From a virus (taxonomy: Duplodnaviria; Heunggongvirae; Uroviricota; Caudoviricetes): a stretch of DNA of 11,868 nucleotides. The position numbers and the translations under genes are program-made. Below, in pieces: positions 1 through 11,868 of the stretch. The notes beneath the pieces are model-generated. The model ran no database searches, was not told the DNA's origin, and saw only the letters and a program-made list of their open reading frames with translations. Numbering within the stretch: the first letter of the stretch is position 1; each line of letters opens with the position of its first letter. The DNA lies in the IMG/VR virus record IMGVR_UViG_2778261165_000018, positions 1-11,868 of that record; one strand, given 5' to 3'.

Positions 1-342
1 ATGATGAAAAAAAGTATTCTGGCGTTTCTGTTACTCACCAGTTCTGCAGCGGCGCTGGCGGCACCGCAGGTGATTACCGTCAGCCGTTTTGAAGTGGGTA
101 AAGACAAATGGGCGTTTAATCGCGAAGAGGTGATGCTGACTTGCCGACCGGGTAATGCTTTGTATGTCATCAACCCAAGTACCCTCGTGCAGTATCCTTT
201 AAACGATATCGCACAAAAGGAAGTTGCCAGTGGGAAGACTAAAGCCCAGCCGATTTCGGTGATTCAGATTGATGATCCTAACAATCCCGGCGAAAAAATG
301 AGTCTGGCACCGTTTATAGAACGAGCTGAAAAACTCTGTTAA
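1..342 (+). CDS. yebY: Host DUF2511-family secreted protein (YebY-like), 113 aa with N-terminal signal peptide
   Basis: ATG at 1, TAA at 340-342. N-terminus [22 protein letters not shown] is a typical Sec signal peptide with an AXA cleavage motif. Sequence matches my recollection of E. coli YebY; not verified by search. Confidence 0.75.
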
Positions 343-370
343 TTACCTAAATAGCCTTTTGATTTCCAAT

Positions 371-412
371 AAAAAAACCGCCTCAGTTCTTTCACCAGAA
401 CGGGCGGTTTTT
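371..412. terminator. Intrinsic terminator downstream of yebY, bidirectional in form
   Basis: A7 run (371-377), GC-rich hairpin CCGCC...GGCGG (378-407) with inner stem GTTCT/AGAAC, then T5 (408-412). A-run before and T-run after allow termination in both directions. Confidence 0.7.
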
Positions 413-486
413 AACATTTAAGCTGATGACTACCGCGCTTTTTATTGACCATTTTGCACGCAAACTGGAAAACCTGGCGTCGTCAT

Positions 487-496
487 CTATTCTTAA
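487..496 (+). promoter_or_regulatory. Sigma-S type -10 element (CTATTCTTAA) for the downstream small RNA
   Basis: CTATTCTTAA is a 9/10 match to the RpoS-type extended -10 (CTATACTTAA) and includes the -13 C. Hexamer TATTCT at 488-493 puts the predicted start near 500. Confidence 0.45.
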
Positions 497-499
497 AGG

Positions 500-603
500 G
501 CAAGGCAACTAAGCCTGCATTAATGCCAACTTTTAGCGCACGGCTCTCTCCCAAGAGCCATTTCCCTGGACCGAATACAGGAATCGTATTCGGTCTTTTT
601 TTA
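500..603 (+). ncRNA. sdsR: Candidate SdsR (RyeB) RpoS-dependent small RNA, about 104 nt
   Basis: Predicted start about 500 (GCAAGGC...). Internal palindrome GCATTAATGC (about 518-527), hairpin GGCTCT/AGAGCC (542-559), and terminal hairpin GACCGAATAC/GTATTCGGTC (569-595) followed by T7 (596-602). No ORF with an RBS. I recall sdsR/ryeA lying next to yebY in E. coli and Salmonella. Confidence 0.55.
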
Positions 604-686
604 ATTGTATTTAAAATCAATCAGTTGCAAACGTCTTCCCGAAATTCCCCGAAATTTACTCGAATTTCTGTATTCCGGTCTTTTTT
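586..686. other. Candidate prophage attL region: two core-like 17-mers, IHF consensus site and tandem 10-bp repeats
   Basis: GTATTCGGTCTTTTTTT (586-602) recurs as GTATTCCGGTCTTTTTT (670-686). IHF consensus WATCAANNNNTTR matched at 615-627 (AATCAATCAGTTG). Three 10-bp-phased repeats CCCGAAATTC / CCCGAAATTT / ACTCGAATTT at 638-667. Integrase stop lies 47 bp further in, at 734. Confidence 0.4.
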
Positions 687-733
687 GGTTATATCACAAC
701 CAAAACACATTTAACAATCCATTTACGTTAAAA

Positions 734-1810
734 TCAGAGCAGTAAGTACGTTTTTTCTCGCTCATCAAGATACATTTTTGTTGTCTTCTCCGATGTGTGA
801 CCAAGTAGGCGCTGGGCAAATTCTTCTCCACATGTTTCTTTGTACAATCGTCCAGCCAGACTTCTGATCTCGTGAAAAGTTGGTGGGTTTTCACTGAACT
901 GGATACCTGTTAATTTTCTGGCTGCGACAAATTTTTTTGTCAGGCCATCCGGGTGAATGCTGCCGTCAGGGCTGTTTTTTCTAATCCCGGCACTGATTAG
1001 ATAATCTCCCCGGCTTACCAGGCGGCACCGTTCAACTACTGTACCAAGCCGTAGACCAGCGACAGGAAGGCTGAGTGACAGGGGGATAGCAATCATCATT
1101 CCTGTCTTAATTTGCCTGATGTGGAGACGATCATCATAAATATCACTGAACCGCATATTCGTTATGTCTTCGCGACGTTGTCCTGTTACAAGGGCTAAAT
1201 CCATAGCTAATGGGAACCATGCCGGCAGTTGATCTGCTGCCTCCCTGATGCAGTTGTATGTCTTTAGTTTCAGTCGTTCTCTTGTAACTACTATTTTCGG
1301 TGCTCTTGTTGGCGTTACTGGATTTTGAGATATACGTCCTTCAACAATGGCCTCGCGAAACATATCAGACAACACAGAACGCATTGATCCTGCCATTGTG
1401 TTTTTCCCTCCTTCAATCCACAAATCAAGAAACTCGGCAATATGGCGAGTTGTTATTTCTGTCAGTAAAATCCCTCCCAATTTTTCTTTTATTGTCTCCA
1501 GTTGATTTACCCGAATTTTATAAGTATTTCTGGACACTTTTCTCCTTATAAGAATCGTTTTGTAACGTTCAATCCAGTCTGCCATAGTAAATGAGTCGAA
1601 CCCTTTAAGCTTTTCAATTAAGGCAGCAGGAGAGTAGTTTTTGTATATATAATGATTTGCTTCAATTGCCTGCGCTACTGCATCTCTTCTTGAAATTTTA
1701 CCTAGTGTAAATTCTTCTTTCGTCAGAGGGTTGCGCCAGTAATATGCTTTGTCCCTCCTTCGATATGTTAAGTTTTTAGGCAAATTGGGATCGTATTTTT
1801 TCCGCTGCAT
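734..1810 (-). CDS. int: Lambda-family tyrosine integrase, 358 aa
   Basis: Collinear with lambda Int as recalled: N-terminal arm-binding region ([15 protein letters not shown]), catalytic-region motifs ([40 protein letters not shown]). RBS GGAGAAG 8 nt upstream of ATG at 1810. Confidence 0.9.
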
Positions 1811-2057
1811 GTTTTAACTTCTCCAGTAACGGACTGTCTCTCCCTTGTCGCCCATTAGGCTGATGGTGTGTTATATCGGTATCAACCTTATTTGGGTTGA
1901 TATAGAAAGCCTCCGGAACCACTCTGTAACTCCTCCCGTGTAGTTCAGGTGCAGGATAAATGTTTCCATTCCTTGCCCATCGTCTCAGCGTTGATATTGA
2001 TGGTGGGTTATCCGGATATCTGAGTTTTCCCCACGTTTTGAGTGTCACAAGATTCAT
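1776..2057 (-). CDS. xis: Excisionase (lambda Xis-like)
   Basis: Motif TLRRWARNGNIYPAPELHGRSYRV resembles lambda Xis (ETVRRWVRECRIFPPPVKDGREYLF). 3' end overlaps the int start by 35 nt as in lambda. Start chosen at the ATG at 2057 (RBS AAGAGG 7 nt upstream); the ATG at 2063 is too close to the RBS. Confidence 0.7.
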   Translation of the reverse strand: MNLVTLKTWGKLRYPDNPPSISTLRRWARNGNIYPAPELHGRSYRVVPEAFYINPNKVDTDITHHQPNGRQGRDSPLLEKLKHAAEKIRSQFA

Positions 2058-2163
2058 TGCCATACCTCTTACGATATGACCGCCAGTAAATATACAGAAT
2101 ACTGGCGGGTGTGGTTGATTTTTAATAATCAGCTATGAAGTTCTAATTTGTATATAATGCAAC

Positions 2164-2352
2164 TCACGAGGACAGAAGCTTCTCGCAATTAAAATTTATC
2201 AGCTTTACTTTCTGCTCTCTGGAAACGCCTGCTTCTTTTTTCCCTGAGAGCATTTTTTCGCATTCTGATTTCGTTAATTTAGATTTTGAATATCTTGTCC
2301 AGTTAGTAGGAGTGCCACCTTCTTTTTCAATAGTGGCAGTTATTTTATACAT
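2164..2352 (-). CDS. ydaC: Small prophage protein, YdaC-like, 62 aa
   Basis: ORF MYKITATIEKEGGTPTNWTRY... with RBS GGAGGTG directly upstream of the ATG at 2352. Overlaps the ralR stop by 8 nt. Position between xis and ralR matches Rac as I recall it. Confidence 0.6.
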   Translation of the reverse strand: MYKITATIEKEGGTPTNWTRYSKSKLTKSECEKMLSGKKEAGVSREQKVKLINFNCEKLLSS

Positions 2353-2539
2353 GAACACCTCCATTATTATTTCCAGTAGTTCGTTTATTCCATCTTTCGA
2401 GTGCTTCTTTTTCACTTCCACCATAGCCAGTTCGGGATTCGCATCCGTTGCATTTTGCCCGGTAATATCCTGAAATTGCTTTCACCGTAACAGATGGACA
2501 ACCACAAAACGGACATGGTTTAACATCGTCATATCTCAT
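2345..2539 (-). CDS. ralR: Restriction alleviation protein RalR/Lar (zinc-ribbon), 64 aa
   Basis: MRYDDVKPCPFCGCPSVTV...AKCNGCESRTGYG has a CxxC...CxxC zinc ribbon and matches my recollection of K-12 RalR. In-frame upstream ATGs at 2551 and 2578 would give 68 or 77 aa. Confidence 0.8.
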   Translation of the reverse strand: MRYDDVKPCPFCGCPSVTVKAISGYYRAKCNGCESRTGYGGSEKEALERWNKRTTGNNNGGVHV

Positions 2540-2595
2540 AATTTTTGTCATAAAAACTGTCTCACGTTGGCGGTGCATTACACCGCCAGGCTGAA

Positions 2596-3405
2596 TTATT
2601 CTTCTGAATTATCGATTACACTGTATTCCCCGGTTAATACAGAGGAGTCTGCCGGATCGATTGTCAGTGGTTCCTTTTCATCCATTGATACTGCACGCTG
2701 GATTTCAATTGAGACTGGCAGGTATTTAAACAGGCGACGAATAGCCGTTTTTTTTGCCATTTCTTCCCAGTGAGTTACCCATGGCCCGTTATTACCAGCC
2801 TTACTCTGGCTGCGCACCAGTTCAATCTGTTTGCGCGTCATAACTTCAAACTGAGTCCCTCCGTCTTTCAGTCTTGCGACAGCATAGACGTGGGTCACTG
2901 GTGCATCTTCGTTTTCTCCCGGGCGGTGTATTAACTTTTCATCAAGGCCAAATTCAAAACTAAACTCGTCACCTTCACGGACAACACGGGCTGACAGGCT
3001 GGCGATTTGACCAGAACGGCGAGCCAGATCAATCATGCCGCGATAACCAATGATTAGCTGAACGTTCTTTTTACCGCTCTTTTCGTTTTTATTACCAAAA
3101 GGCAGTAAATATGCGTGGCCGAGGGCGCTACCTGGCTCAAGGCCGAGCTGTGAACACTGAACGATCGCACTGACAAAACTCATGGTGTCACAGTTTCCTA
3201 GCGCCGGAACCTTACGAATTTCTGTGGTGGCGATACGTATCATTCGTTCAGCCGTCATATGGCGTGGGAGAGCTGCTGCCAGTTGCTCTTTCATTGATGG
3301 CTGATTAATAAAGCTGATCACGTCGTTATTTTTTACTGCTGCTGGTGCACGGTTTCCCTGGGTTTTTTGCAGATCGGCTTTTGCGATAGGTGGTTGCTTA
3401 GTCAT
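2596..3405 (-). CDS. recT: RecT single-strand annealing recombinase, 269 aa
   Basis: [27 protein letters not shown]... matches recalled Rac RecT over its whole length. RBS GGAG 7 nt upstream. Start overlaps the recE stop (3398-3405), indicating translational coupling. Confidence 0.9.
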
Positions 3406-6073
3406 TTGCATACTCCTTAGCCCAGCGGGGCAGTGATAACGTTTTAATAGCTGGCCATTCATCGGTATTCAGGCAGTCAGCCAGGGTCCTCAGATTGCGG
3501 TGATATTCCTGCTGGCCTGCCAGTTTTGCTTCTTCGCCCATCATGAAAATCTCAACCGGGTAACGTCCGCATTCAACAGTTGTGCTGGCAACCAGAAAAA
3601 CGAAAGTTGGCAGCACGCCAAACTGTGCTTCATAACCGTCACTGTAGAATGCATCCTGAACGTGATAGCGGTAGTCGTAATAAGCCGTTTTGAATCGTTG
3701 AATATCCGCTGTGGTTTTCACGTCCATGATCCAGTGAAATTCAGGAATAATTTTGTCCGGACGGCACCGACACAAAATTCCTGTTTCAGGATCTTCCCAG
3801 TAAATTGATGATTCAGCGTGTCCGGCGCTTTCAACAAGCCATTGACCCAGCGGCAAAGCCATAACGCTCTGATACATGAGTTCAATTTTCCGGCCTTCTT
3901 CGGCAGTGATAACCGTTTTTCCTGTGCTTGCGCATTCCATCAGAAACGCTTTCTCCTCTTCTTTTCCGGCGGTTGTACGGCGGTTAAATTCAGGTGCCAC
4001 GATAAAGCGGTTACTGAATTCTTCCGGTTCAAGTACACGGCAGTGGAAAGCGGTTCCTAAATCGAGCGTTTTTGTCTTTGTGGTGTCCACTGGGGCATTT
4101 TTACGCCACAAATACAGAGCCGGAGTATCAGCAATGTCGTCGAGCTGAGACTTACTGACACCGGGACCCGCGTGGTAATTCTCATTCGAAATTCCGTAAT
4201 AAATACCAGGCTCTATGTCTCCTGCGATTACGGGATCTGCGACTTCGCCAGTTTCATCACTGCAATCGCGATGCGGATCGCTGCCAGCATTCTCATTGTG
4301 CGGATGTTCAGGGCCTTCCATTTCCTCCGGATCTTTTTCCTGAGATTCATCCAGATTTTCTTCATTAAAGGTTTCCTGATACGTGGTGTCGCCCATCACC
4401 GCGCCACAATCAGGGCAGTTGCCGCCACCGCTCTGACCGCAGGCGGCACAGACTTTTTCCGGTTCCTGTTGCGCTACTGGTTCAGATTGTTTCGTTTCTG
4501 GCTCGTTTTTCTGTGCATTTGGGCTGTTTTGTTCCGCTTTCTGGTTGTTTTGTTCCGATTCGGGCTGGTTCTGGTTCACAGAATCTCGGGTTTCAATTCC
4601 CTTAACCCATTTCGGATCATTCGGGTCGCTAATCCCTTCAACAAATTCTCCGCGAGAGGCAGCCAGCAATTTGTCGGCATCGACAGGATTTTTGGGCGGA
4701 ATGGTTTTCCGGGCTTCATGGAGTTCTGCCCGCAGTTTCTGATATTTCGCATCAACAGAATTTACCTGTGACTGAGCATCCAGCGGCTGCGTGTCCTGAT
4801 GATGTTCAGTTGCATCCGGTTCCACTGTTTCAGCCGTTGCCTGTTTATCTGCCATTGCGCAAGATGGTTGCGGTTTTTCTTCACCATCGTGTTTTCCTTC
4901 TTCTGTTACACGCTGCGGCATCGGGGCAGAGGAACGACCGCAGGCAATATCCACGATTTCCGGATCAGGGTTGGCATGATCGGTTTCAATCAGCACCTTG
5001 TTCAGATATTCAGTGACATGCGCAGGGATAACCTCGATCCCAATTGGTGCTTCTTTTACGGACGCAACCACGATGGCGCGGGAATAATCCAGCCCGCCAG
5101 GCATGGTGATGAATTTGTCGCGGAAAACAGAAAAGGGCGGTTTATTTTCAGCGATAATTTCCTCGACACGTTTAGCGTGTGCCGGATGAAGGTTATAAAT
5201 GTCCACGTCCATTGAACGAGCCAGTACGCCAGTGGCTACGTCGCGCGCCAGTGACGTCAGATCGTGAACGAAACCTTCGCCGCGATCGGTGAGGTTCCCG
5301 CCGCCAGCATTAGCGCCGGAAGCCGTGCGCGTGATGCGTGAAACACGATTTCCTTTCATCCACTCTTTTGTCAGCAGACCGCGATCGGTGTAGTCTGCGT
5401 CCAGGTATGCTTCGAAAAAAGCAGTCATCAGCCCCAGGCTTGAATTGCCTGGATTAGGGAACACTCTGTCAGTATCACGCACCAGTTTGTGGAGATCGCG
5501 AATTTCCAGCGGGTCGAGCAGGCTGGTTTTGTGGGAAACAGCCAGGGCAGTAACAGCTGGTAGTTCTTCAGCCCGTGCAATGTGTAATGCCTGGAGTTCG
5601 TCGCGTGAAACGTGCGTTACCGGTTTTTCGCTGCCGTGTTGAGCAAGCCAGCGAATGGGCAGCTCCTGACCGGAAATCGGGAGTAGCATATTCTCCTCAA
5701 TCTCCGTCATGTCTTCGCCATTAACATTGGTATTGTCAGTGCTGGCTGGCTTGTCCTGCGCAGAGGATGAGGGCGCGATAAATACCATTGTGATGCCATC
5801 TTCCCCGCCTTTTTCGTAACGGTTGCAGAATTCCGTATCAAATACGCCTTCTGGTGGAAGGTCATCAACAACGGGCAAATTGACGCAAACAGGTTTTTTA
5901 AAGTCATCTTCATCGTAGCCAGCATCGTCAATCGCAACAGCACCACGGGAGATGGCAATGGATAATTTTTTCGCTTCAGCCCAGTAGAAACCGCCTTTAA
6001 TACCGAGACGTTTTCTTACTTTGTCATTTTTTGCTTCGTAATACAGTGGGTAAACTTGTTTATCGGTGCTCAT
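3398..6073 (-). CDS. recE: RecE exonuclease VIII, 891 aa
   Basis: C-terminal two-thirds (from [17 protein letters not shown] to the end ...[11 protein letters not shown]) matches recalled K-12 RecE, including the nuclease domain. The N-terminal roughly 110 residues differ from what I recall. ATG at 6073 with RBS GAGGT. Confidence 0.9.
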
Positions 6074-6143
6074 TGTTTTTTAACCTCAACTCAGATTAAA
6101 ATTAATGCGAGTGATGAATAAATGTCCCAGGTTCTTCACTCAG

Positions 6144-6173
6144 GCCTGCACAGTGTGCAGGCTTTCTTTTTTT
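6144..6173 (+). terminator. Plus-strand intrinsic terminator between racC stop and recE start
   Basis: Stem GCCTGCA (6144-6150), loop CAGTG, stem TGCAGGC (6156-6162), then TTTCTTTTTTT (6163-6173). It has terminator form only on the plus strand, opposite to the flanking genes. Confidence 0.5.
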
Positions 6174-6448
6174 CAGATTTCACCTTTTAATTTCATTGCA
6201 ATCAGAGTTGCCAGAAATTCGGCTTTTTTTTCTGCGGGCAGATTCTTTCCTATGTGCACCAGACACATTTTTTTAACACCATCGTTAAGTGTTTTAACGT
6301 TGCCTGATGGACCGTCGATATCAACCACAGTGAATGGGGTTTCTTTATTTTCTGTCTTAATCACGTAGCCAATACGCTTTCCTTCCAGGGTAACTTCGTG
6401 AACAATGTCATCAGTAGTAACAACAGTGGCTTCATAACTGGTAATCAT
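6173..6448 (-). CDS. racC: RacC, 91 aa prophage protein
   Basis: MITSYEATVVTTDDIVHEV... matches recalled K-12 RacC. RBS AAGGAGAAAAAC precedes the ATG at 6448. The longer track ORF starting at 6496 lacks an RBS. Confidence 0.8.
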   Translation of the reverse strand: MITSYEATVVTTDDIVHEVTLEGKRIGYVIKTENKETPFTVVDIDGPSGNVKTLNDGVKKMCLVHIGKNLPAEKKAEFLATLIAMKLKGEI

Positions 6449-6522
6449 GTTTTTCTCCTTAATTAAGGTTGAGCGAATCCCTGCCATTGCTGGCATAAAT
6501 TCAGTTTCGGATAGTCAGTTAA

Positions 6523-6693
6523 TTAAAGTTCGTGTGCCATCTGGTCTTTTTCGGCACAGATTTCACTACAATATTTTTTCATTTCCGTCGTTGGTATAAC
6601 TCCACGCATGAAATGAAGTGGTCTTGTAATGATTTTGCTTTCTTCAATTTCTTTATTGCAAAGGTGATAAGCACATTTTATTTTCTTAGTCAT
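6523..6693 (-). CDS. ydaE: YdaE-like small zinc-binding protein, 56 aa (absent from the ORF track)
   Basis: My translation of the minus strand: [56 protein letters not shown], with paired cysteines C-x4-C and C-x3-C. Its ATG overlaps the kilR stop (TAATG at 6691-6695). Confidence 0.7.
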   Translation of the reverse strand: MTKKIKCAYHLCNKEIEESKIITRPLHFMRGVIPTTEMKKYCSEICAEKDQMAHEL

Positions 6694-6914
6694 TACCATG
6701 ACTCCGCCTTTACAGGTAAACCATCACGACCGAGGAAGACTCTAATCATGCAGTCAGAAATGCATGTTTTTGTAGTCAGGCTACGAATATAAAGTTTTCG
6801 CTTTTTAATATTGTTTGCCGAGGCGATATATGTCCGACCTTCATGAAGAACATAATCGCCAGGGGTCACACACTGACGTGGTATTTCATCAGTTCCGAAG
6901 TGATGAGCAATCAT
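6693..6914 (-). CDS. kilR: KilR cell-division inhibitor, 73 aa
   Basis: [35 protein letters not shown]... matches recalled K-12 KilR. RBS GGAGAT 6 nt upstream of the ATG at 6914. Confidence 0.8.
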
Positions 6915-7419
6915 AATTATCTCCATTTTTACAAATGAATTTTGTCGATGCGGTGCCTGGTGCCTCCAGGTGACGTTAACCAGTTAACAATTAACGCCGG
7001 ATCGTGATATCACCTAAACAGATACGGGTTGTTTTTAACTGTTCCGCGTGCGCTGAGCCGCATTCACCGCATCACAAAATTCACTTTAAAAAGGACGGAC
7101 ATCAGCCAGCAATGAAACTGATGCCGCCAAAAGGTAATCAACATGGGTTGTTGCAGCGGGGTTGTCACTCAAGCGTATGGTCAACCTGACAACCCGGTGC
7201 TCCACAGGGGGAGGGAGAATAGCACCCCTGCCATACTTACCGCCGCGCCATTTCGCGGATTGCCACAACCGGAAGCGCACGGTCGAAGAAATTTAAAGAC
7301 AAGCCTTCTAAGGGAAAAACACCTCCTCCGTGCGCTTTCGTGTTGTGCGCCTGTCTTTTTACCACTTCAGGCTCGGTGGTATACTGGAGTTCTCACACAA
7401 CCAGTAATAAGGTATTCCG

Positions 7420-7614
7420 ATGGATAATAAAGACAAAGCCTGGCTACTTGCTTTAGCTTTCAGCATCAGATCGCAGCGAGAAACAACTCATCAAGAATTT
7501 TTCTCGGAAATCGAGAATGCTGAGAATGAGTTTTTGTCACTACTCAATGAACGTGATGCTAAAAAAAGCGCCGATTCACTTAAGGCTTGGGCGAAACTAG
7601 GCTCTTCAAAATAA
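7420..7614 (+). CDS. Hypothetical 64 aa protein in the position K-12 Rac gives to sieB
   Basis: ATG at 7420 with RBS AAGGT 6 nt upstream. Candidate promoter TTTTAC (7357-7362), 17 nt spacer, TATACT (7380-7385). No hydrophobic segment, so unlike a SieB membrane protein. Confidence 0.4.
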   Translation: MDNKDKAWLLALAFSIRSQRETTHQEFFSEIENAENEFLSLLNERDAKKSADSLKAWAKLGSSK

Positions 7615-7798
7615 TTGCTTCTGTAGCGGCATGAACAACTGTTTTTGCCGCCTCTTCAACTTCCTTGTCTGGACGACCAGCCTTTACTTTTTCTGCAATG
7701 ACCTCCAGCACAGTTGGAAGAACCTTGCTAATAAGCATGGCTGCCACATCTTTGCTGCACAATTGACCGTTAATAACAACCAGATCTTCACCAACCAT
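7580..7798 (-). CDS. Hypothetical 72 aa protein (possibly the intact form of the short ydaF/ydaG genes of K-12 Rac)
   Basis: ATG at 7798 with strong RBS AAGGGG 7 nt upstream. The track ORF extends to a TTG at 7855 without an RBS. Its 3' end overlaps the convergent 64 aa gene by 35 nt. Confidence 0.5.
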   Translation of the reverse strand: MVGEDLVVINGQLCSKDVAAMLISKVLPTVLEVIAEKVKAGRPDKEVEEAAKTVVHAATEAIILKSLVSPKP

Positions 7799-7977
7799 CT
7801 TTTTTCCCCTTAACGCCGGGTGGCGGAACGTTTTATCTACTGCGCTTTGTATCAATCAACAACTGCCGTCATGTTCGTATGCCTCAGGCTGGCTACTTAG
7901 CCCTGTTCAGTGGCTGGATAACTCGAGGTATTGTCCTGCCGTTCTCTGGTGGGGCGTTGTTTGGATATGACAAATGC

Positions 7978-7990
7978 TCACATATCGTGA
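7978..7990 (-). promoter_or_regulatory. Isolated operator-like site TCACGATATGTGA (read on the minus strand)
   Basis: Exact match to the TCACG-N3-TGTGA motif found three times in the racR/ydaS intergenic region. A perfect TTGACA lies on the minus strand at 8003-7998. Confidence 0.4.
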
Positions 7991-8043
7991 GTGATTTGTC
8001 AACTCAATATGTGAGCAATGTTGTTTTTGGATTTTTGATGGAC

Positions 8044-8076
8044 AAAAAAAGCCCTCGCTAATAGCGAGAGCTTTTT
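8044..8076. terminator. Bidirectional intrinsic terminator downstream of the repressor gene
   Basis: A7 (8044-8050), hairpin GCCCTCGCT/AGCGAGAGC (8051-8071), then TTTTT (8072-8076). Has terminator form in both orientations. Confidence 0.6.
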
Positions 8077-8102
8077 GATTGGAATCGAGGGAGATTAAAG
8101 GT

Positions 8103-8492
8103 TTAGGAGGATTTTTTCTGTTGCCTGCTTCTTAGATATTTTTCCACATACTCATCAAGCTCTTGAAGACGGATTTCGAACAGATCAATCATGCGTGCTT
8201 GTTCTGATCCCGGGAGCTGATTAAACAGCTCTAGCATTTTTTTCTGGTTATCATTTAACCATGAGTACGTGTTTTCCTGTTCACCGAACATTAATTCTGC
8301 GGGGGAAATGCCTAGTACTTGGCCGAGGATGATCGCATCCTCAGCCCCCACACTCCTGGTGCCAGCTTCGTAGTTAGCAATACGAGAAGAACCTGACCAA
8401 CCACATAGTTTTGCCAGGTTTCCCATACTTAATCCTCGATTTAGGCGAGTGGCTTTTAGGCGCTCGCCTATTTGTTCTGCAATCGTTTTCAT
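8103..8492 (-). CDS. racR: Prophage repressor, XRE/Cro-C1 family HTH (RacR-like), 129 aa from the ATG
   Basis: HTH signature LSMGNLAKLCGWSGSSRIANYEAG. Divergent from the cro-like ydaS across an operator-bearing intergenic region. Start taken at MKTIAEQ (8492); the track ORF extends upstream from a TTG. Confidence 0.75.
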   Translation of the reverse strand: MKTIAEQIGERLKATRLNRGLSMGNLAKLCGWSGSSRIANYEAGTRSVGAEDAIILGQVLGISPAELMFGEQENTYSWLNDNQKKMLELFNQLPGSEQARMIDLFEIRLQELDEYVEKYLRSRQQKKSS

Positions 8493-8505
8493 AGTTCCGA
8501 TTTTA

Positions 8506-8567
8506 TCACGATGTGTGAAATTGGCGGTACTCACGTATCTGTAGTTGATCTCACTCACGAAATGTGA
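8506..8567. promoter_or_regulatory. Three-site operator array (OR-like) between racR and ydaS
   Basis: TCACGATGTGTGA (8506-8518), TCACGTATCTGTA (8531-8543), TCACGAAATGTGA (8555-8567). Near-palindromic 13-mers spaced 25 and 24 bp centre to centre. Confidence 0.55.
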
Positions 8568-8572
8568 ATAAT
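8545..8572 (+). promoter_or_regulatory. Candidate rightward promoter for ydaS (pR-like)
   Basis: -35 TTGATC (8545-8550), 16 nt spacer, -10 AATAAT (8567-8572). Operator site 3 overlaps the spacer and -10. Confidence 0.35.
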
Positions 8573-8586
8573 AGAAACAGGAGGTA

Positions 8587-8832
8587 ATGATGAACAAAAT
8601 TTCAACATATCGAAAACAGCTTGGGCTGTCTCAAAGACAACTTGCTGTTCAGTTAGGGTGGATACAAAGCCGACTGGCAAATTACGAAGCAAATTTTCGT
8701 ACCCCTGGGCTAGAGGAGTGCAGAAAAATTGTTTCTACCCTTAATCGGCTTGGTGCTCATTGTGGACTTGACGATGTATTCCCCCCAGACGGTAAGCATA
8801 GCGAAAACAGCATAGGAGCGGTTGATTCATGA
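8587..8832 (+). CDS. ydaS: Cro-like HTH regulator YdaS
   Basis: HTH region LSQRQLAVQLGWIQSRLANYE. RBS GAGG fits the second ATG at 8590 better. Stop overlaps the ydaT start (ATGA at 8829-8832). Confidence 0.8.
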   Translation: MMNKISTYRKQLGLSQRQLAVQLGWIQSRLANYEANFRTPGLEECRKIVSTLNRLGAHCGLDDVFPPDGKHSENSIGAVDS

Positions 8833-9251
8833 AAATCAGGCATGAGCACATCGAATCAGTGTTGTTAGCCCTGGCAGCCGAAAAAGGGCAGGCGTGGGTC
8901 GCTAACGCAATTACTGAAGAATATCTGCGCCAGGGGGGCGGCGAATTGCCCCTTGTACCAGGCAAGGACTGGAACAATCAGCAGAATATCTATCACCGTT
9001 GGTTGAAAGGTGAAACGAAAGCGCAAAGGGAAAAAATTCAGAAACTCATCCCTGCGGTTCTGGCAATTCTTCCGCGCGAGCTGCGTCACCGACTCTGCAT
9101 CTTCGATACCCTGGAACGCCGTGCATTACTGGCGGCGCAGGAAGCGTTGAGTACGGCAATTGATGCGCATGATGATGCAGTACAGGCCGTTTACCGGAAA
9201 GCACATTTCAGCGGTGGTGGGTCGCCCGGCGATTCTGTCGTAGTGCATTGA
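8829..9251 (+). CDS. ydaT: YdaT-like protein (reported toxic partner of YdaS in Rac), 140 aa
   Basis: MKIRHEHIESVLLALAAEKGQAWVANAITEEY... matches recalled K-12 YdaT in length and sequence. Translationally coupled to ydaS. Confidence 0.8.
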   Translation: MKIRHEHIESVLLALAAEKGQAWVANAITEEYLRQGGGELPLVPGKDWNNQQNIYHRWLKGETKAQREKIQKLIPAVLAILPRELRHRLCIFDTLERRALLAAQEALSTAIDAHDDAVQAVYRKAHFSGGGSPGDSVVVH

Positions 9252-9296
9252 TTGAAATTAATCGTGCCGGATTGTTTTGTTCGGTATCAGTTAAAT

Positions 9297-9714
9297 GTAA
9301 CGCTGCGAGCGTTACAAGGTGAAAACAAATGGCTTCAAACTGGATAAAGCTCGAGGTTATTACGCCGGATAAGCCGGAAATATTCAGGCTTGCTGAGATT
9401 CTGAATATTGATCCAGATGCCGCATTAGGGAAGGTTATTCGCTTCTGGGCATGGGCGGATCAACAAATGATAGACGGTAATGCAGATTGTAACGCTCGCG
9501 GCGTTACAAAAAGTGCAATAGATCGCATCACTTTTATGGCTGGTTTTGCTGATGCGTTAATTCAGGTTGGATGGCTGGTCGAAAATGACGTTGGGCTTTC
9601 TCTACCTAACTTTGAACGTCATAACGGAAAAAGCTCTAAAAAACGGGCGGTTACAAACGAGCGAGTTACAAAAATACGCGAACTGAAACGAAAAGGTAAC
9701 GCTGCCAGCGTTAC
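9297..9714. repeat. Iteron-like 19-bp palindromes GTAACGCT-N3-AGCGTTAC (three good copies and one degenerate)
   Basis: GTAACGCTGCGAGCGTTAC (9297-9315, just upstream of the ydaU-like start), GTAACGCTCGCGGCGTTAC (9489-9507), degenerate GTTACAAACGAGCGAGTTACA (9650-9670), GTAACGCTGCCAGCGTTAC (9696-9714). An acidic linker with (GAGGAA)3 and an AT-rich patch follow at 9736-9775. Confidence 0.5.
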
Positions 9715-10117
9715 ACAAACGGATCAAAAAGCGTTACCAGAGGAAGAGGAAGAGGAAGATATAAATACTGATCTCCCCCTAAATCCCCCTCGTCAAAAAC
9801 GAGCGTCTAAAAAATTCGAGCCGGAGGCTATTGAGCTGCCCGATTGGTTGCCGGAAACACTCTGGCATGAGTGGGTCCGGTTCAGACAGGCATTGCGAAA
9901 ACCGATTCGAACGGAGCAGGGCGCTAACGGGGCGATACGGGAACTGGAAAAATTCCGTCAGCAGGGTTTTACACCTGAGCAGGTGATTCGACACAGCATC
10001 GCCAATGAATACCAGGGCCTGTTCGCGCCGAAAGGTGTTCGGCCTGAGACGTTGCTCCGACAGGTTAACACCGTCTCGTTGCCGGACAGTGCGATCCCGC
10101 CAGGCTTCAGGGGGTAA
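9329..10117 (+). CDS. ydaU: Phage replication initiation protein (YdaU-like, lambda O analogue), 262 aa
   Basis: RBS AGGTGA 6 nt upstream of the ATG. Lies immediately upstream of the DnaC-like loader, contains the palindromic repeats and a central acidic linker (EEEEEED). Family assignment is from memory. Confidence 0.7.
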   Translation: MASNWIKLEVITPDKPEIFRLAEILNIDPDAALGKVIRFWAWADQQMIDGNADCNARGVTKSAIDRITFMAGFADALIQVGWLVENDVGLSLPNFERHNGKSSKKRAVTNERVTKIRELKRKGNAASVTQTDQKALPEEEEEEDINTDLPLNPPRQKRASKKFEPEAIELPDWLPETLWHEWVRFRQALRKPIRTEQGANGAIRELEKFRQQGFTPEQVIRHSIANEYQGLFAPKGVRPETLLRQVNTVSLPDSAIPPGFRG

Positions 10118-10123
10118 CGGACC

Positions 10124-10870
10124 ATGAAAAATATTGCGACAGGCGGCGTTCTGGAACGCATCCGCCGACTGACCCCGCCACATGTAACCGCCCCATTCAG
10201 AACGGTAGCGGAGTGGCGCGAGTGGCAACTTGCTGAAGGCCAGAAACGTAGCGAGGAGATCAACCGCCTGAATCGCCAGTTGCGGGTGGAAAAAATTCTG
10301 AATCGCTCAGGCATCCAGCCGTTGCACCGTAAATGCTCGTTTGCGAATTACCAGGTGCAGAACGACGGCCAGCGATACGCGTTAAGCCAGGCGAAATCCA
10401 TCACCGATGAACTGATGACCGGGTGTACAAATTTTGCGTTCAGCGGAAAACCTGGTACCGGGAAGAATCACTTAGCGGCAGCTATCGGGAATCGCCTGCT
10501 GAAAGACGGTCAGACAGTGATTGTGGTTACCGTGGCTGATGTTATGAGCGCCCTGCACGCCAGCTATGACGACGGGCAGTCAGGCGAAAAATTTTTGCGG
10601 GAGCTGTGCGAAGTGGATCTGCTGGTTCTTGATGAAATTGGCATTCAGCGCGAGACAAAAAACGAGCAGGTGGTGCTGCACCAGATTGTTGATCGCCGGA
10701 CAGCGTCGATGCGCAGCGTGGGGATGCTGACAAACCTGAACTATGAGGCCATGAAAACATTGCTCGGCGAGCGGATTATGGATCGCATGACCATGAACGG
10801 CGGGCGATGGGTGAATTTTAACTGGGAGAGCTGGCGTCCGAATGTCGTCCAGCCAGGAATTGCGAAGTGA
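10124..10870 (+). CDS. ydaV: DnaC-like replicative helicase loader (AAA+ ATPase, IstB-like), 248 aa
   Basis: Walker [14 protein letters not shown] and Walker [10 protein letters not shown]. Length and sequence match recalled K-12 YdaV. Confidence 0.9.
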
Positions 10871-10892
10871 TTTTTACCGGGAGGAAATTTTA

Positions 10893-11645
10893 ATGGAAAC
10901 TGTATTTGACGCACTGAAAGCAATGGGAAAAGCCACGTCGGTAGAACTGGCTGCGCGACTTGATATCAGTCGTGAAGAGGCTGTCAACGAGCTGTGGGAA
11001 CTCAAAAGAAATGGCGTTGTTGATAAAACTGGTCACACCTGGTCTCTGGCTGGCGAAGGTGAATCCCGGGTAACCGAAGAGCGGCCAGTAAAATCTGAAG
11101 CACAGGATATGCTGACCGGGGAGGTCGAACAAAAAGTTACCGCAGACATGATGATTGAGTTTATCGGTCAGGATGGGGCTAAAACGTGTGAGGAACTGGC
11201 GGGTAAGTTCGGTGTCAGTACTCGCAAGGTTGCTTCCACGCTGGCGGTGGTAACCGCAACGGGGCGGCTGGCACGCGTTAATCAGAACGGTAAATTTCGT
11301 TACTGCATGCCGGGCGATAATTTACCAGCAGAGCCGAAAGCCGCGCTGGTAACGGAAAGTGATGGTAAGGCCTTTCCTCAACCAGCAGGTGTTGCGTTAC
11401 CGGGACAGGAAGCTGCAACACAGGAAGATATTAAAACAGAAACTGTGGCAGACATTGTGCAGCCGCTTGAGAAGCGAGTGGATAATCTGGTTCTGCCATC
11501 GCTGCGACAGGCAAACCGCGAACTGCGTCGGGCGAAAAGTGATATCCGGAAATGGGAGCGAGTCTGTGTCGCGCTGCGGGAGCTGAATAAATATCGCGAT
11601 ATTGTCGCCCAGCTTTGCCAGGAGGCAACCAGTGAGCAAAATTAA
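10893..11645 (+). CDS. Hypothetical prophage protein with two winged-helix-like segments and a C-terminal helical region (YdaW-like), 250 aa
   Basis: Start chosen at the ATG at 10893 (RBS GGGAGG about 9 nt upstream) rather than the track start at 10842, which overlaps ydaV. Two helix-turn-helix-like stretches (around [26 protein letters not shown] and [21 protein letters not shown]). Confidence 0.6.
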
Positions 11646-11868
11646 CTATCAGGCACTACGTGAGATAGCAAAACAGGCAACACAGGGCGAATGGGTCGCG
11701 TTTATTTCGACGGGTACAGGTACGTATGCTGTGCATACGCCCGGTGATAAACGATGTGAAGATGTTATCAAATGGACCGGCTTTGATGGACTGAAAAACG
11801 CAGAGAACAACGCTCGTTATATTGCCGCATTCAACCCAAAGGTTGCACTGGAGCTACTTGGTGAAATT
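11632..11868 (+). CDS. Hypothetical prophage protein, 5' partial (runs off the window end)
   Basis: GTG at 11632 preceded by GGAGG (11621-11625) at 6 nt. Open frame to the window end ([28 protein letters not shown]...). Overlaps the upstream gene's stop by 14 nt. Confidence 0.5.

Follow-up and report, generated by a model that had tools for sequence, protein, structure and literature searches.

Overlapping genes for Cro-like and CII-like regulators in the likely immunity switch of a Rac-like lambdoid prophage

The two overlapping genes described here most probably (at a probability of about 0.85) encode a Cro-like and a CII-like regulator, and belong to the rightward early operon of the immunity switch in a Rac-like lambdoid prophage. 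They are carried by a viral DNA stretch of 11,868 nucleotides (positions 1 to 11,868 of IMG/VR record IMGVR_UViG_2778261165_000018), which was analysed over its whole length and is called the window below. In relatives of this system, published work assigns to the repressor, YdaS and YdaT the functions that CI, Cro and CII have in lambda (Jobling 2018, PMC5917428; Jurenas 2021, PMC8630535; PMC9986795; PMC11879457). The YdaT protein of the window is probably harmful if derepressed, which is a known side effect of phage regulation rather than a sign of a dedicated addiction or suicide module. Three details are new here: an ATGA that lies within the spacer of a YdaT-box, a box-to-TAnnnT geometry that is kept across junction types, and a second box upstream of xis-int.

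The host element is a Rac-like lambdoid E. coli prophage integrated next to yebY. Its genes run from int-xis to recT-recE-kil, followed by the repressor gene and, divergent from it, the cro-like gene, ydaT, an O-like gene and a dnaC-like gene; none of the ORFs in this region is disrupted in the window. The O-like replication initiator (9329-10117, plus strand) matches PHROG 2509, "replication initiation protein", at 2e-89, and the last gene (10124-10870, plus strand) encodes YdaV, a DnaC/IstB-like helicase loader (Pfam IstB_IS21). The layout of a lambdoid immunity region is present: divergent repressor and Cro-like genes, spaced operators over both of their promoters and a second, leftward operator set.

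The first-pass annotation had placed both genes downstream of an operator array, and this array is real. Indeed, the motif TCACR-N3-YGTGA is found in three exact copies in the window (7978-7990, 8506-8518 and 8555-8567) against 0.04 expected, and none of 200 shuffles reached three copies. Two of these copies, the OR3-like operator TCACGATGTGTGA (8506-8518) and the OR1-like operator TCACGAAATGTGA (8555-8567), lie in the 97-bp intergenic region on either side of a degenerate OR2-like copy recognized by inspection of the sequence (TCACGTATCTGTA, 8531-8543), with centre-to-centre distances of 25 and 24 bp. The OR1-like operator lies inside a PR-like promoter (8545-8572, plus strand; -35 TTGATC at 8545-8550, 16-nt spacer, -10 AATAAT at 8567-8572), where it occupies the spacer and the -10. 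This promoter, a consensus match only, is the single sigma-70 match on the plus strand between 7800 and 9340, and would serve the Cro-like gene, ydaT and the replication genes alike. The OR3-like operator overlaps the putative repressor promoter and abuts its TG-extended -10, TAAAAT (minus strand, 8505-8500); 7 nt separate this element from the ATG of the repressor (8492). By analogy to the PaaR2 and cI mRNAs, which were shown to be leaderless (PMC8630535), the repressor transcript would be leaderless as well.

The third exact copy belongs to an OL-like pair (7978-8014), formed by TCACGATATGTGA on the minus strand (7990-7978) and the degenerate TCACATATTGAGT (8014-8002) at a spacing of 24 bp (7978 and 8002). 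The pair is located beyond a bidirectional terminator (8054-8068), upstream of the leftward genes including kil, recE and recT, and flanks a perfect TTGACA -35 (minus strand, 8002-7997); since the accompanying -10 is weak (GAGCAT), we treat the leftward promoter as putative. It is probably under the control of the same repressor, therefore lethality following repressor loss would have several causes.

The repressor itself, the CI analogue of 129 aa (8103-8492, minus strand), combines an XRE-type HTH, matching Pfam HTH_31/HTH_3, with a short helical C-terminal domain. Pfam detected no S24 peptidase domain (PF00717) in it, and without this RecA-sensitive domain the protein is probably not directly SOS-inducible; the CI repressors of Proteus, to which its HTH is 61-63% identical, do carry S24 (PF00717). 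BLASTP returned no alignment between the repressor and RacR, whose Pfam profiles differ as well. Over its full length, the repressor aligns with the NCBIfam model of DicA (NF007257; residues 6-127 to positions 4-133 of 135), at 52 bits where the NCBI cut-off for the DicA family is 101, and it may thus be at best a distant DicA relative. A search of 5.8 billion proteins yielded no named characterised homologue, only generic "helix-turn-helix" names, and none of the solved structures was informative. DicA, a repressor of prophage Qin (Kim), is likewise essential, as it keeps a division inhibitor silent. The likeness to it extends to the whole-length alignment and a similar repressor size; the partner genes differ.

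Facing the repressor is the gene that the first-pass annotation called ydaS (8590-8832, plus strand), a name that turns out to be a misnomer. The encoded protein gave no BLASTP alignment with K-12 YdaS at E <= 100 and did not match Pfam PF15943 (YdaS), which K-12 YdaS matches at 2.6e-31. Its match is to Pfam HTH_3 (7e-10), and by these comparisons it is a generic XRE/HTH_3 protein, outside the YdaS family and Cro-like in its predicted role. The second ATG (8590) is the most likely translation start, which gives 80 aa instead of the 81 aa counted from 8587: GGAGG (8580-8584) sits 5 nt before this ATG, whose equivalent is the only ATG in 42 of 47 related loci. The RefSeq annotations differ, with a length of 80 aa in one genome and 81 aa in a second. 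The closest solved structure is an uncharacterised 82-aa "lambda repressor-like protein" (28tn, E 8e-15); matches to the HipB and MqsA antitoxins are weak, sub-threshold and confined to the HTH. The HTH of the Cro-like protein is 42% identical to that of the window repressor, with a one-residue gap in the recognition helix. The Cro-like protein may share the repressor's type of recognition helix and presumably competes for the same operators. Neither protein is related to its K-12 counterpart, YdaS or RacR, so that how they behave is predicted from where their genes lie and how the proteins fold.

The overlap between the Cro-like gene and ydaT, given as ATGA at 8829-8832 in the first-pass annotation, is borne out by the window sequence. 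The junction reads GGTTGATTCATGAAAATCAG (A8829, T8830, G8831, A8832); in the ORF list, the 81-codon ORF 8587-8832 terminates with TGA at 8830-8832 and the 140-codon ydaT ORF (8829-9251) begins with ATG at 8829, therefore the 4-nt overlap is real. Among 228 YdaT loci, which fall into 17 junction types, 13 types have the stop of the upstream gene overlapping the start codon of ydaT, by 1, 4 or 17 nt; in the remaining four, the upstream gene stops 3 to 58 nt before this ATG. The K-12 Rac prophage differs from the window in having a 22-nt gap between ydaS and ydaT. ydaT is also equipped with a Shine-Dalgarno sequence of its own, AGGAG (8814-8818, plus strand), 10 nt before the ATG; a GGAG-type motif begins 11-16 nt before the ydaT ATG in all 17 junction types, whose flanks are otherwise unrelated. 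Given both the ATGA overlap and this AGGAG, translation of ydaT would probably be aided by a ribosome terminating at the Cro-like stop without depending on that ribosome, and it is in this form that we infer translational coupling of the two genes. The predicted RNA fold at the junction (8785-8865, -16.6 kcal/mol, z = -0.98) is not more stable than that of shuffled sequence and therefore provides no structural evidence that ydaT translation requires upstream translation. Coupling based on RNA structure is thus unsupported.

The downstream gene, ydaT (8829-9251, plus strand), encodes a CII-like tetrameric transcription activator of 140 aa. The protein matches Pfam PF06254 at 43.3 bits (cut-off 21), PHROG 163, "CII-like transcriptional activator", at 1.5e-36, and PDB entries 3c4r and 8bt1. 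Across its 140 residues it is 95% identical to YdaT of K-12 Rac. The DNA-binding residues H56 and R57 (and W58) are kept in a segment identical to K-12 (NIYHRWLKG), with R57 and W58 invariant in 18 homologues, and the helix-alpha6 region (residues 95-128), the C-terminal tetramerisation helix, is identical to K-12 as well.

What this protein does to the host can be approached through K-12, where loss of RacR is lethal through ydaS/ydaT, as stated in the first-pass annotation: RacR represses ydaST, and racR is not deletable unless ydaS-ydaT is removed (PMC5700373, PMC5700377). The toxic protein in K-12 is YdaT, not YdaS, and filamentation arises partly via rcsA (PMC11014345, PMC11879457). Since K-12 YdaT is toxic, the window protein is 95% identical to it and H56 and R57 are kept, it is plausible, by analogy, that derepression harms the cell here too. 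The claimed sameness of the wiring to that of K-12 is one of analogy and not of homology, given that neither RacR nor YdaS has its homologue in the window's repressor or Cro-like protein. Control by a single repressor, also claimed, is too simple a picture, as the K-12 promoter is held down additionally by YdaS, OxyR and a convergent promoter (PMC11879457).

Toxicity of this kind led the first-pass annotation to propose an addiction or abortive-infection candidate, that is, a dedicated host-killing module in which selection would have favoured the Cro-like gene and ydaT for their toxicity, with one repressor holding them off. This would fit with the essentiality of K-12 racR unless ydaST is deleted, with the death or filamentation of cells that over-express YdaT, with the 95% identity of the window protein to K-12 YdaT and with the Pfam names of the YdaS and YdaT families, which still read "toxin"; moreover, Wons et al. 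remark on the lack of mutations in the toxic locus, which suggests some benefit. We nevertheless regard such a module as very improbable. YdaT is a DNA-binding tetramer with defined operators and an activator role, and the PHROG name and the published CI/Cro/CII roles point the same way. The CP-933P homologue is non-toxic (PMC11014345, PMC8630535), over-produced lambda CII is also toxic (PMC5917428), and earlier tests, as far as they are cited in PMC5917428 and PMC9986795, found no toxin-antitoxin behaviour. The PADLOC defence models gave no match to YdaT, and a heteroimmune superinfecting phage has no evident route to inactivate the repressor. When the repressor is lost in K-12, the prophage excises and the cell is rescued (PMC11014345), which is the opposite of post-segregational killing: prophage loss removes "toxin" and repressor together and excision rescues, therefore the logic of such killing does not apply. 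Finally, at least five unrelated Cro-like types have been swapped freely, and it is the regulatory box geometry that is conserved instead. If the genes are the switch regulators that we propose, host toxicity would be a side effect of an overproduced transcription factor with host targets such as rcsA.

The box in question, TTGATT-CATGAA-AATCAG (TTGATTCATGAAAATCAG, 8822-8839), has one mismatch to TTGATT-N6-AATCAA, and the ATGA that forms the Cro-like stop and the ydaT start (8829-8832) falls within its 6-nt spacer. A YdaT-box spans the ydaT ATG in 17 of the 17 junction types (228 loci). The K-12 equivalent, ATGATTCATGAAAATCAA, is footprinted by YdaT and required for activated leftward transcription into racR (PMC11879457), and the equivalent box of CP-933P was footprinted too (PMC9986795). 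On the minus strand, a candidate -10, TATGCT (8795-8800), is found 21 nt from the box edge, which would place the centre of the box near -42.5. The same arrangement recurs in other loci: TAnnnT is present on the opposite strand 20-21 nt left of the box in 15 of the 16 distinct junction types included in this comparison, while every other offset from 0 to 59 gives one TAnnnT match at most. T1, A2 and T6 are fixed and the inner three bases vary, which is the signature of a -10. These observations suggest a YdaT-dependent leftward promoter, like lambda PRE, that would read toward the repressor gene.

A consensus promoter scan (9 of 12 matches) detected no minus-strand promoter at the junction or in the Cro-like gene. 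A miss of this kind is expected for an activator-dependent promoter, though it is no positive evidence for one. With a relaxed scan, several weak leftward candidates appeared, of which only the one at the fixed distance is supported across loci. In K-12, Wons et al. assigned the YdaT-dependent activity to PracR4, about 190 bp from the box (PMC11879457), and in CP-933P the position of PRE was not precisely mapped (PMC8630535).

The box also marks the limit of conserved sequence. Similarity to K-12 Rac is near-perfect from the box on, and weak and patchy just upstream; in the other cassette types, the flanks upstream of the box are unrelated. For YdaT diversity, we used viral contigs in three scans, as the scan of genome contigs with YdaT alignment gave only 8 loci. 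The first 84 loci contain six kinds of Cro-like gene, of which five show no relation to one another, and all of these join a near-identical ydaT at the box. Over the full set of 228 loci, with its 17 junction types, the genes that run up to the box are again unrelated Cro-like genes. A Shine-Dalgarno sequence and a -10 at fixed distances in otherwise unrelated flanks indicate selection. We advance, tentatively and at somewhat less than even odds, the view that the 18-bp YdaT-box acts as a fixed socket: it would be the recombination boundary for unrelated repressor/Cro-like cassettes, each bringing its own Shine-Dalgarno sequence and a -10 at 20-21 nt, and at the same time a class-II-type activator site (around -41.5 or -42.5) for an adjacent PRE-like promoter rather than one 190 bp away, with the geometry repeated at the xis-int box as a PI analogue.

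This second box, TTGATTTTTAATAATCAG (2115-2132), lies 52-69 nt upstream of the ATG of xis (1776-2063, minus strand), next to which is int (734-1810, minus strand). The two boxes are the only matches with at most one mismatch in the window, against 0.14 expected; searches at 2-3 mismatches found 12 sites against 9.9 expected, and these were discarded because they are at chance level. A -10, TATATT (minus strand, 2094-2089), is located 20 nt from the second box. The same box is present upstream of xisR in K-12, and similarity between the window and K-12 ends directly after it. Both types of downstream module at the xis-side box keep TAnnnT at 20 or 21 nt; only two such types were found, so the proposed PI-like role of the second box is argued from two independent cases. 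In K-12, Rac excision is unaffected by YdaT (PMC11014345), which argues against a strong effect of YdaT on xis-int. The box suggests a missing third phage target of YdaT.

Exchange of cassettes also bears on the repressor side of the switch. In 42 of the 47 loci with this Cro-like gene, the partner is a different repressor, of 139 aa, with a different operator set; the pairing seen in the window is found in the other five, with the joint at the Cro-like Shine-Dalgarno sequence near 8580. Moreover, the HTH of the 139-aa repressor of related prophages is 45% identical to that of the Cro-like protein and aligns gapless in the recognition helix. As judged from these alignments, the Cro-like gene is a better match for the 139-aa repressor than for the repressor encoded in the window, which may thus carry a hybrid switch. 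It could then be argued that the region is a mismatched or decaying remnant, a recombinant cassette stranded in a cryptic prophage whose relics are no longer under selection and whose gene overlap is an accident of the joint. The rarity of the pairing (5/47) and the gapless recognition helix, found with the 139-aa repressor only, would agree with this, as would the IS3 insertion or disrupted O-like gene near the locus in the closest complete genomes. The overlap itself could arise by default: any frame entering the YdaT-box, in all three frames, meets a TGA within 24 nt of the box start, so any ORF that enters it ends near the ATG. We consider such a remnant very unlikely, as the ORFs of the region are all intact in the window, the operator arrays are intact and correctly placed, and the distances of the Shine-Dalgarno sequence and of the -10 are kept in unrelated flanks. 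Furthermore, 10 complete E. coli genomes have the window's pairing at 98-100% identity. The same immunity region is also found, at 98% identity, in the record of a 47.5-kb phage genome, therefore the cassette belongs to complete phages.

The prophage switch that we favour can be set against known systems. K-12 Rac shares the backbone of the window (ralR, recT, recE, kil, ydaT, ydaV), the YdaT-box on the ydaT start codon and the box upstream of xis, as well as a divergent repressor without S24 and operators over a strong rightward promoter. It differs in RacR and YdaS, unrelated to the window repressor and Cro-like protein, in its operator motif, in integrase, xis and attachment site (ttcA in K-12, the yebY side here), and in PracR4, which lies in ydaS sequence absent here. 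The paaR2/ydaS/ydaT region of CP-933P (E. coli O157:H7), shown by experiment to be a CI/Cro/CII-like bistable switch (PMC9986795, PMC8630535), likewise has a 97-bp divergent intergenic region and a repressor without S24; its leaderless repressor mRNA is established, in line with the one proposed here. The YdaT of CP-933P recognises TTGATT-N6-AATCAA where ydaS meets ydaT, and turns on a PRE-like promoter (PMC9986795, PMC8630535), but it shares only some 30% identity with YdaT of the Rac type and is not toxic (PMC11879457, PMC11014345). CP-933P also has a paaA2-parE2 toxin-antitoxin pair after its repressor, whereas none follows the repressor here.

With lambda, the likeness is one of layout, without sequence similarity: divergent genes separated by three operators at intervals of about 24 bp, a second operator set at a leftward promoter, cII straight after cro and ahead of the replication genes, an activator site at the cro/cII junction for antisense transcription into the repressor gene (predicted here), and an activator site in front of int (a candidate here). 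Lambda CII recognises direct TTGC repeats, whereas the YdaT site is an inverted repeat; CII flanks the -35, and the box here would centre near -41.5 or -42.5. The candidate site is upstream of xis, not inside it. The window repressor further differs from that of lambda by the absence of the RecA-sensitive S24 domain, as do RacR and PaaR2 (PMC8630535).

All together, these data are consistent with the following scenario. The repressor would bind its 13-bp TCACR-N3-YGTGA operators, three in the divergent region and two leftward, and shut the PR-like promoter. Upon failure of repression, or infection, this promoter would produce a single mRNA for the Cro-like protein, YdaT and the replication genes. 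YdaT, bound to the box over its own start codon at about -42, would turn on the weak leftward promoter (-10 TATGCT, 8800-8795), from which, as from lambda PRE, transcription would run antisense across the Cro-like gene and on into that of the repressor; YdaT would probably also activate xis-int from the box at 2115-2132, as at lambda PI. Of this scenario, the gene identities, the overlap, the operator and box sequences and the conserved geometry are seen directly in the sequences analysed. The bicistronic mRNA, binding to the YdaT-box, leftward activation and toxicity via rcsA have been demonstrated for K-12 and CP-933P (PMC11879457, PMC9986795, PMC8630535, PMC11014345).

The region would thus be one more lambdoid lysis-lysogeny switch like those of K-12 Rac and CP-933P, which have been worked out before, and its "toxin" label would be a relic of annotation. 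The toxic, Rac-type YdaT sits under several unrelated repressor/Cro cassettes, so that statements about RacR and YdaS are not transferable to most ydaT-carrying E. coli. The combination of box, 20-21 nt and TAnnnT offers a precise and inexpensive way of testing the position of the YdaT-dependent establishment promoter, which current papers place differently. If true, the socket model, including the previously unreported xis-int box, would complete the parallel with lambda CII.

The window covers the left arm of a lambdoid prophage of Rac type, integrated beside yebY. The integrase (734-1810), the excisionase xis (1776-2063), a RalR-like gene, recT, recE, kil and a 129-aa HTH repressor (8103-8492) are read leftward; an HTH (Cro-like) protein of 80 or 81 aa (8587 or 8590 to 8832), ydaT (8829-9251), an O-like replication initiator (9329-10117), a DnaC-like loader (10124-10870) and a DUF1627 protein gene are read rightward. 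The O-like gene is intact in the window; its counterpart in L001 (13330-14460), a near-identical locus from the complete genome that comes closest among those with this immunity region, is broken and entered as a pair of partial pseudogenes, and other close genomes carry an IS3 insertion in the region.

YdaT is 95% identical to YdaT of K-12 Rac over all 140 residues, H56, R57 and W58 included, scores above the Pfam PF06254 threshold and falls in PHROG 163, "CII-like transcriptional activator". The gene preceding it had been called ydaS in the first-pass annotation, a name that had to be given up: the protein gave no BLASTP alignment to YdaS and no match to PF15943, which K-12 YdaS matches at 2.6e-31, and belongs to the XRE/HTH_3 proteins. 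RacR was likewise rejected as an identity for the repressor when the two were compared. Across its full length the repressor aligns with the DicA model, below threshold (52 bits vs 101), and its HTH domain is 61-63% identical to that of S24-bearing CI repressors of Proteus prophages; unlike these relatives, no S24 domain was found in it. Since the Cro-like protein is not YdaS and the repressor is not RacR, the window carries a Rac-type YdaT joined to a different immunity cassette.

The motif TCACR-N3-YGTGA has exactly three copies in the 11.9-kb window (7978-7990, 8506-8518 and 8555-8567) against 0.04 expected, a number reached in none of 200 shuffles; the operator array previously proposed upstream of both rightward genes is thus real. 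A degenerate copy at 8531-8543 brings the number of sites in the 97-bp divergent region to three, with spacings of 25 and 24 bp. Past the repressor's terminator stands another pair, at 24-bp spacing (7978-7990 and 8002-8014), which brackets a perfect leftward TTGACA. This arrangement matches the OR/OL layout of lambda, and the divergent region of CP-933P is also 97 bp long. Operator 8555-8567 overlaps the only plus-strand consensus promoter (TTGATC 8545-8550, 16 nt, AATAAT 8567-8572). On the minus strand, a TG-extended -10 element (TAAAAT, 8505-8500) ends 7 nt ahead of the repressor ATG, which suggests a leaderless repressor mRNA by analogy to lambda cI and PaaR2 of CP-933P, for which leaderless mRNAs were shown (PMC8630535). 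The same repressor probably also governs a leftward promoter in front of kil. The same immunity region, at 98% identity, is found in a 47.5-kb phage record, PP818812.1 ("Actinobacillus phage vB_Apl-pPE4"); this record is attributed to Actinobacillus pleuropneumoniae, and its recT, recE and kil are of the E. coli type. The host assignment looks doubtful; the record may represent an E. coli prophage that was induced.

The pairing of the 129-aa repressor with this Cro-like gene is a minority arrangement (5/47 loci): in the other 42, an identical Cro-like gene stands with a 139-aa repressor, 64% identical to that of the window, and with other intergenic sequence. The joint in similarity lies at the Cro-like Shine-Dalgarno, near 8580 (window 8493-8589 vs 5916-6010 of L002, a locus with the 139-aa repressor). 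A CAC-N5-GTG core is common to the two operator sets. The Cro recognition helix, GWIQSRLANYEA, aligns gap-free with that of the 139-aa repressor, GWTQSRIGNYEA, and the helix of the window repressor, GWSGSSRIANYEA, has one extra residue relative to Cro. The immunity region of the window appears to be a hybrid.

The Cro-like gene most probably starts at 8590, because GGAGG lies 5 nt ahead of this ATG, the sole ATG in most related loci. Its stop codon (TGA, 8830-8832) overlaps the start of ydaT (ATG, 8829-8831) in the sequence GGTTGATTCATGAAAATCAG, and the ATGA overlap was therefore correctly called at first pass. Among 228 loci comprising 17 junction types, the stop overlaps the ydaT ATG in 13 types and falls 3 to 58 nt short of it in the remaining four, with gaps of 22 nt in K-12 Rac and of 13 nt in a variant, known from one locus, of the junction type that the window has. 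Tight packing or overlap is therefore the norm across junction types. Translational coupling of the two genes is plausible. It is probably an aid to ydaT translation and not a requirement, because ydaT always has its own ribosome-binding site, a GGAG-type Shine-Dalgarno beginning 11-16 nt ahead of its ATG in 17/17 types, and the RNA around the junction folds with no unusual stability (z = -0.98).

The ATGA is also the centre of the 6-nt spacer of a YdaT-box, TTGATT-CATGAA-AATCAG (8822-8839, one mismatch to TTGATT-N6-AATCAA), a site published together with the YdaT structure (PMC9986795). Identity between the window and K-12 is near-perfect from the box onward and weak or patchy just upstream. 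A first survey took in 84 loci: 80 viral contigs encoding a YdaT of at least 98% identity, the window itself, and three loci from E. coli genomes, one of them K-12 Rac. In these, one and the same ydaT follows six kinds of Cro-like gene, of which five are unrelated to each other, and, patchy K-12 similarity aside, the cassette types resemble one another only from base 1 of the box onward. Each of the three forward frames meets a TGA (tTGAtt, caTGAa, gcaTGAgc; 8822-8845) no more than 24 nt after the box begins; a Cro-like ORF brought in upstream by recombination, whichever it is, therefore terminates at the start of ydaT or just within it. Cro-like ORFs run into the box and end at the first in-frame TGA (...VDS and ...IHENQA; ...ESD in other subfamilies). 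The right half-site, AATCAx, codes for conserved YdaT residues 2-4 (x-I-K/R).

When the survey was extended to the 228 loci, including Klebsiella- and Enterobacter-type YdaTs down to ~56% identity, the box spanned the ydaT ATG in all 17 junction types. A YdaT with 95% identity to that of E. coli is also encoded on JARKOR010000130.1, a contig of 5.2 kb assigned to the bin "Candidatus Nanosynbacter", where it is probably a binning contaminant. On the repressor-directed strand, TAnnnT stands 20 or 21 nt to the left of the box in 15/16 distinct junction types, and every other offset from 0 to 59 has at most one match. The hexamers (among them TATGCT, TAGCCT, TAATTT, TATGAT, TAGTTT and TACGAT) keep T1, A2 and T6 and vary in the inner bases. 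The background is ~0.01 per offset; by our own calculation, chance cannot yield this pattern, even with only about seven independent flanks (~0.02^7). In the window, the candidate -10 at this distance is TATGCT (8800-8795, minus strand), which would place the box centre near -42.5, the geometry of a class II activator acting with a poor -35. YdaT would thus activate a PRE-like promoter reading antisense via the Cro-like gene into the repressor gene. A PRE-like promoter is activated by YdaT of CP-933P (PMC8630535), and in K-12, Wons et al. found that YdaT footprints ATGATTCATGAAAATCAA, on its own start codon, and that the YdaT-box is required for up to 29-fold activation of leftward transcription into racR (PMC11014345, PMC11879457). 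They place the YdaT-dependent promoter ~190 bp away (PMC11879457), whereas the candidate promoter of the window adjoins the box.

Only one other window sequence matches the box with at most one mismatch: TTGATTTTTAATAATCAG (2115-2132), 52-69 nt upstream of the xis ATG (two found vs 0.14 expected). A -10 candidate, TATATT (2089-2094, minus, the xis strand), lies 20 nt away. In K-12 Rac, this box recurs ahead of xisR (3504-3521 of its locus, L003), with TAACAT 21 nt away; similarity between the two prophages stops right after the box, and the xis-int modules differ. By analogy, the second box is possibly a counterpart of the CII-activated PI of lambda, a reading based on two independent module types. 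YdaT was without effect on Rac excision in K-12 (PMC11014345), and neither this box nor xisR, integrase or excisionase is mentioned in a 2025 paper on the targets of YdaT. An inverted repeat, GCCAGTA...TACTGGC (2081-2106, minus), found in no xis module but that of the window type, brackets TATATT; another regulator could bind there, or the repeat could form an RNA hairpin.

The first-pass annotation had read the Cro-like gene and ydaT as a host-lethal module held off by a single repressor, a candidate for addiction or abortive infection. Part of this stands: RacR is essential in K-12 because ydaS-ydaT are derepressed in its absence (PMC5700373, PMC5700377), and Wons et al. found there a single ydaS-ydaT mRNA and toxicity from YdaT only, partly via rcsA activation (PMC11014345, PMC11879457). 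Since the window YdaT is of this toxic Rac type, host harm upon derepression is plausible. Kil, an FtsZ inhibitor (6693-6926, minus), and the RalR-like type I toxin (2345-2578, minus), both named via the annotation of L001, are further host-damaging genes of the leftward operon and would add to any lethality of repressor loss. An addiction or abortive-infection function, however, lacks support: YdaT matches no defence or toxin-antitoxin model, its CP-933P homologue is not toxic (PMC8630535), prophage excision in K-12 rescues cells instead of killing them (PMC11014345, PMC11879457), and what is conserved across lineages is the regulatory geometry, not a toxin-antidote pairing. The names "Bacterial toxin YdaT/YdaS" (Pfam PF06254, PF15943) persist despite experiments showing transcription factors, as does the RefSeq product "toxin YdaT family protein" in L001 and L002; K-12 YdaT has already been corrected in RefSeq to "DNA binding transcriptional activator". 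Jobling made the case for Cro and CII equivalents, not toxins (PMC5917428), and Jurenas et al. showed PaaR2, YdaS and YdaT of CP-933P to be a bistable switch like CI/Cro/CII (PMC8630535). All together, the locus is best explained as an ordinary lysis-lysogeny switch, and in a complete prophage its repressor would control the entire lytic programme.
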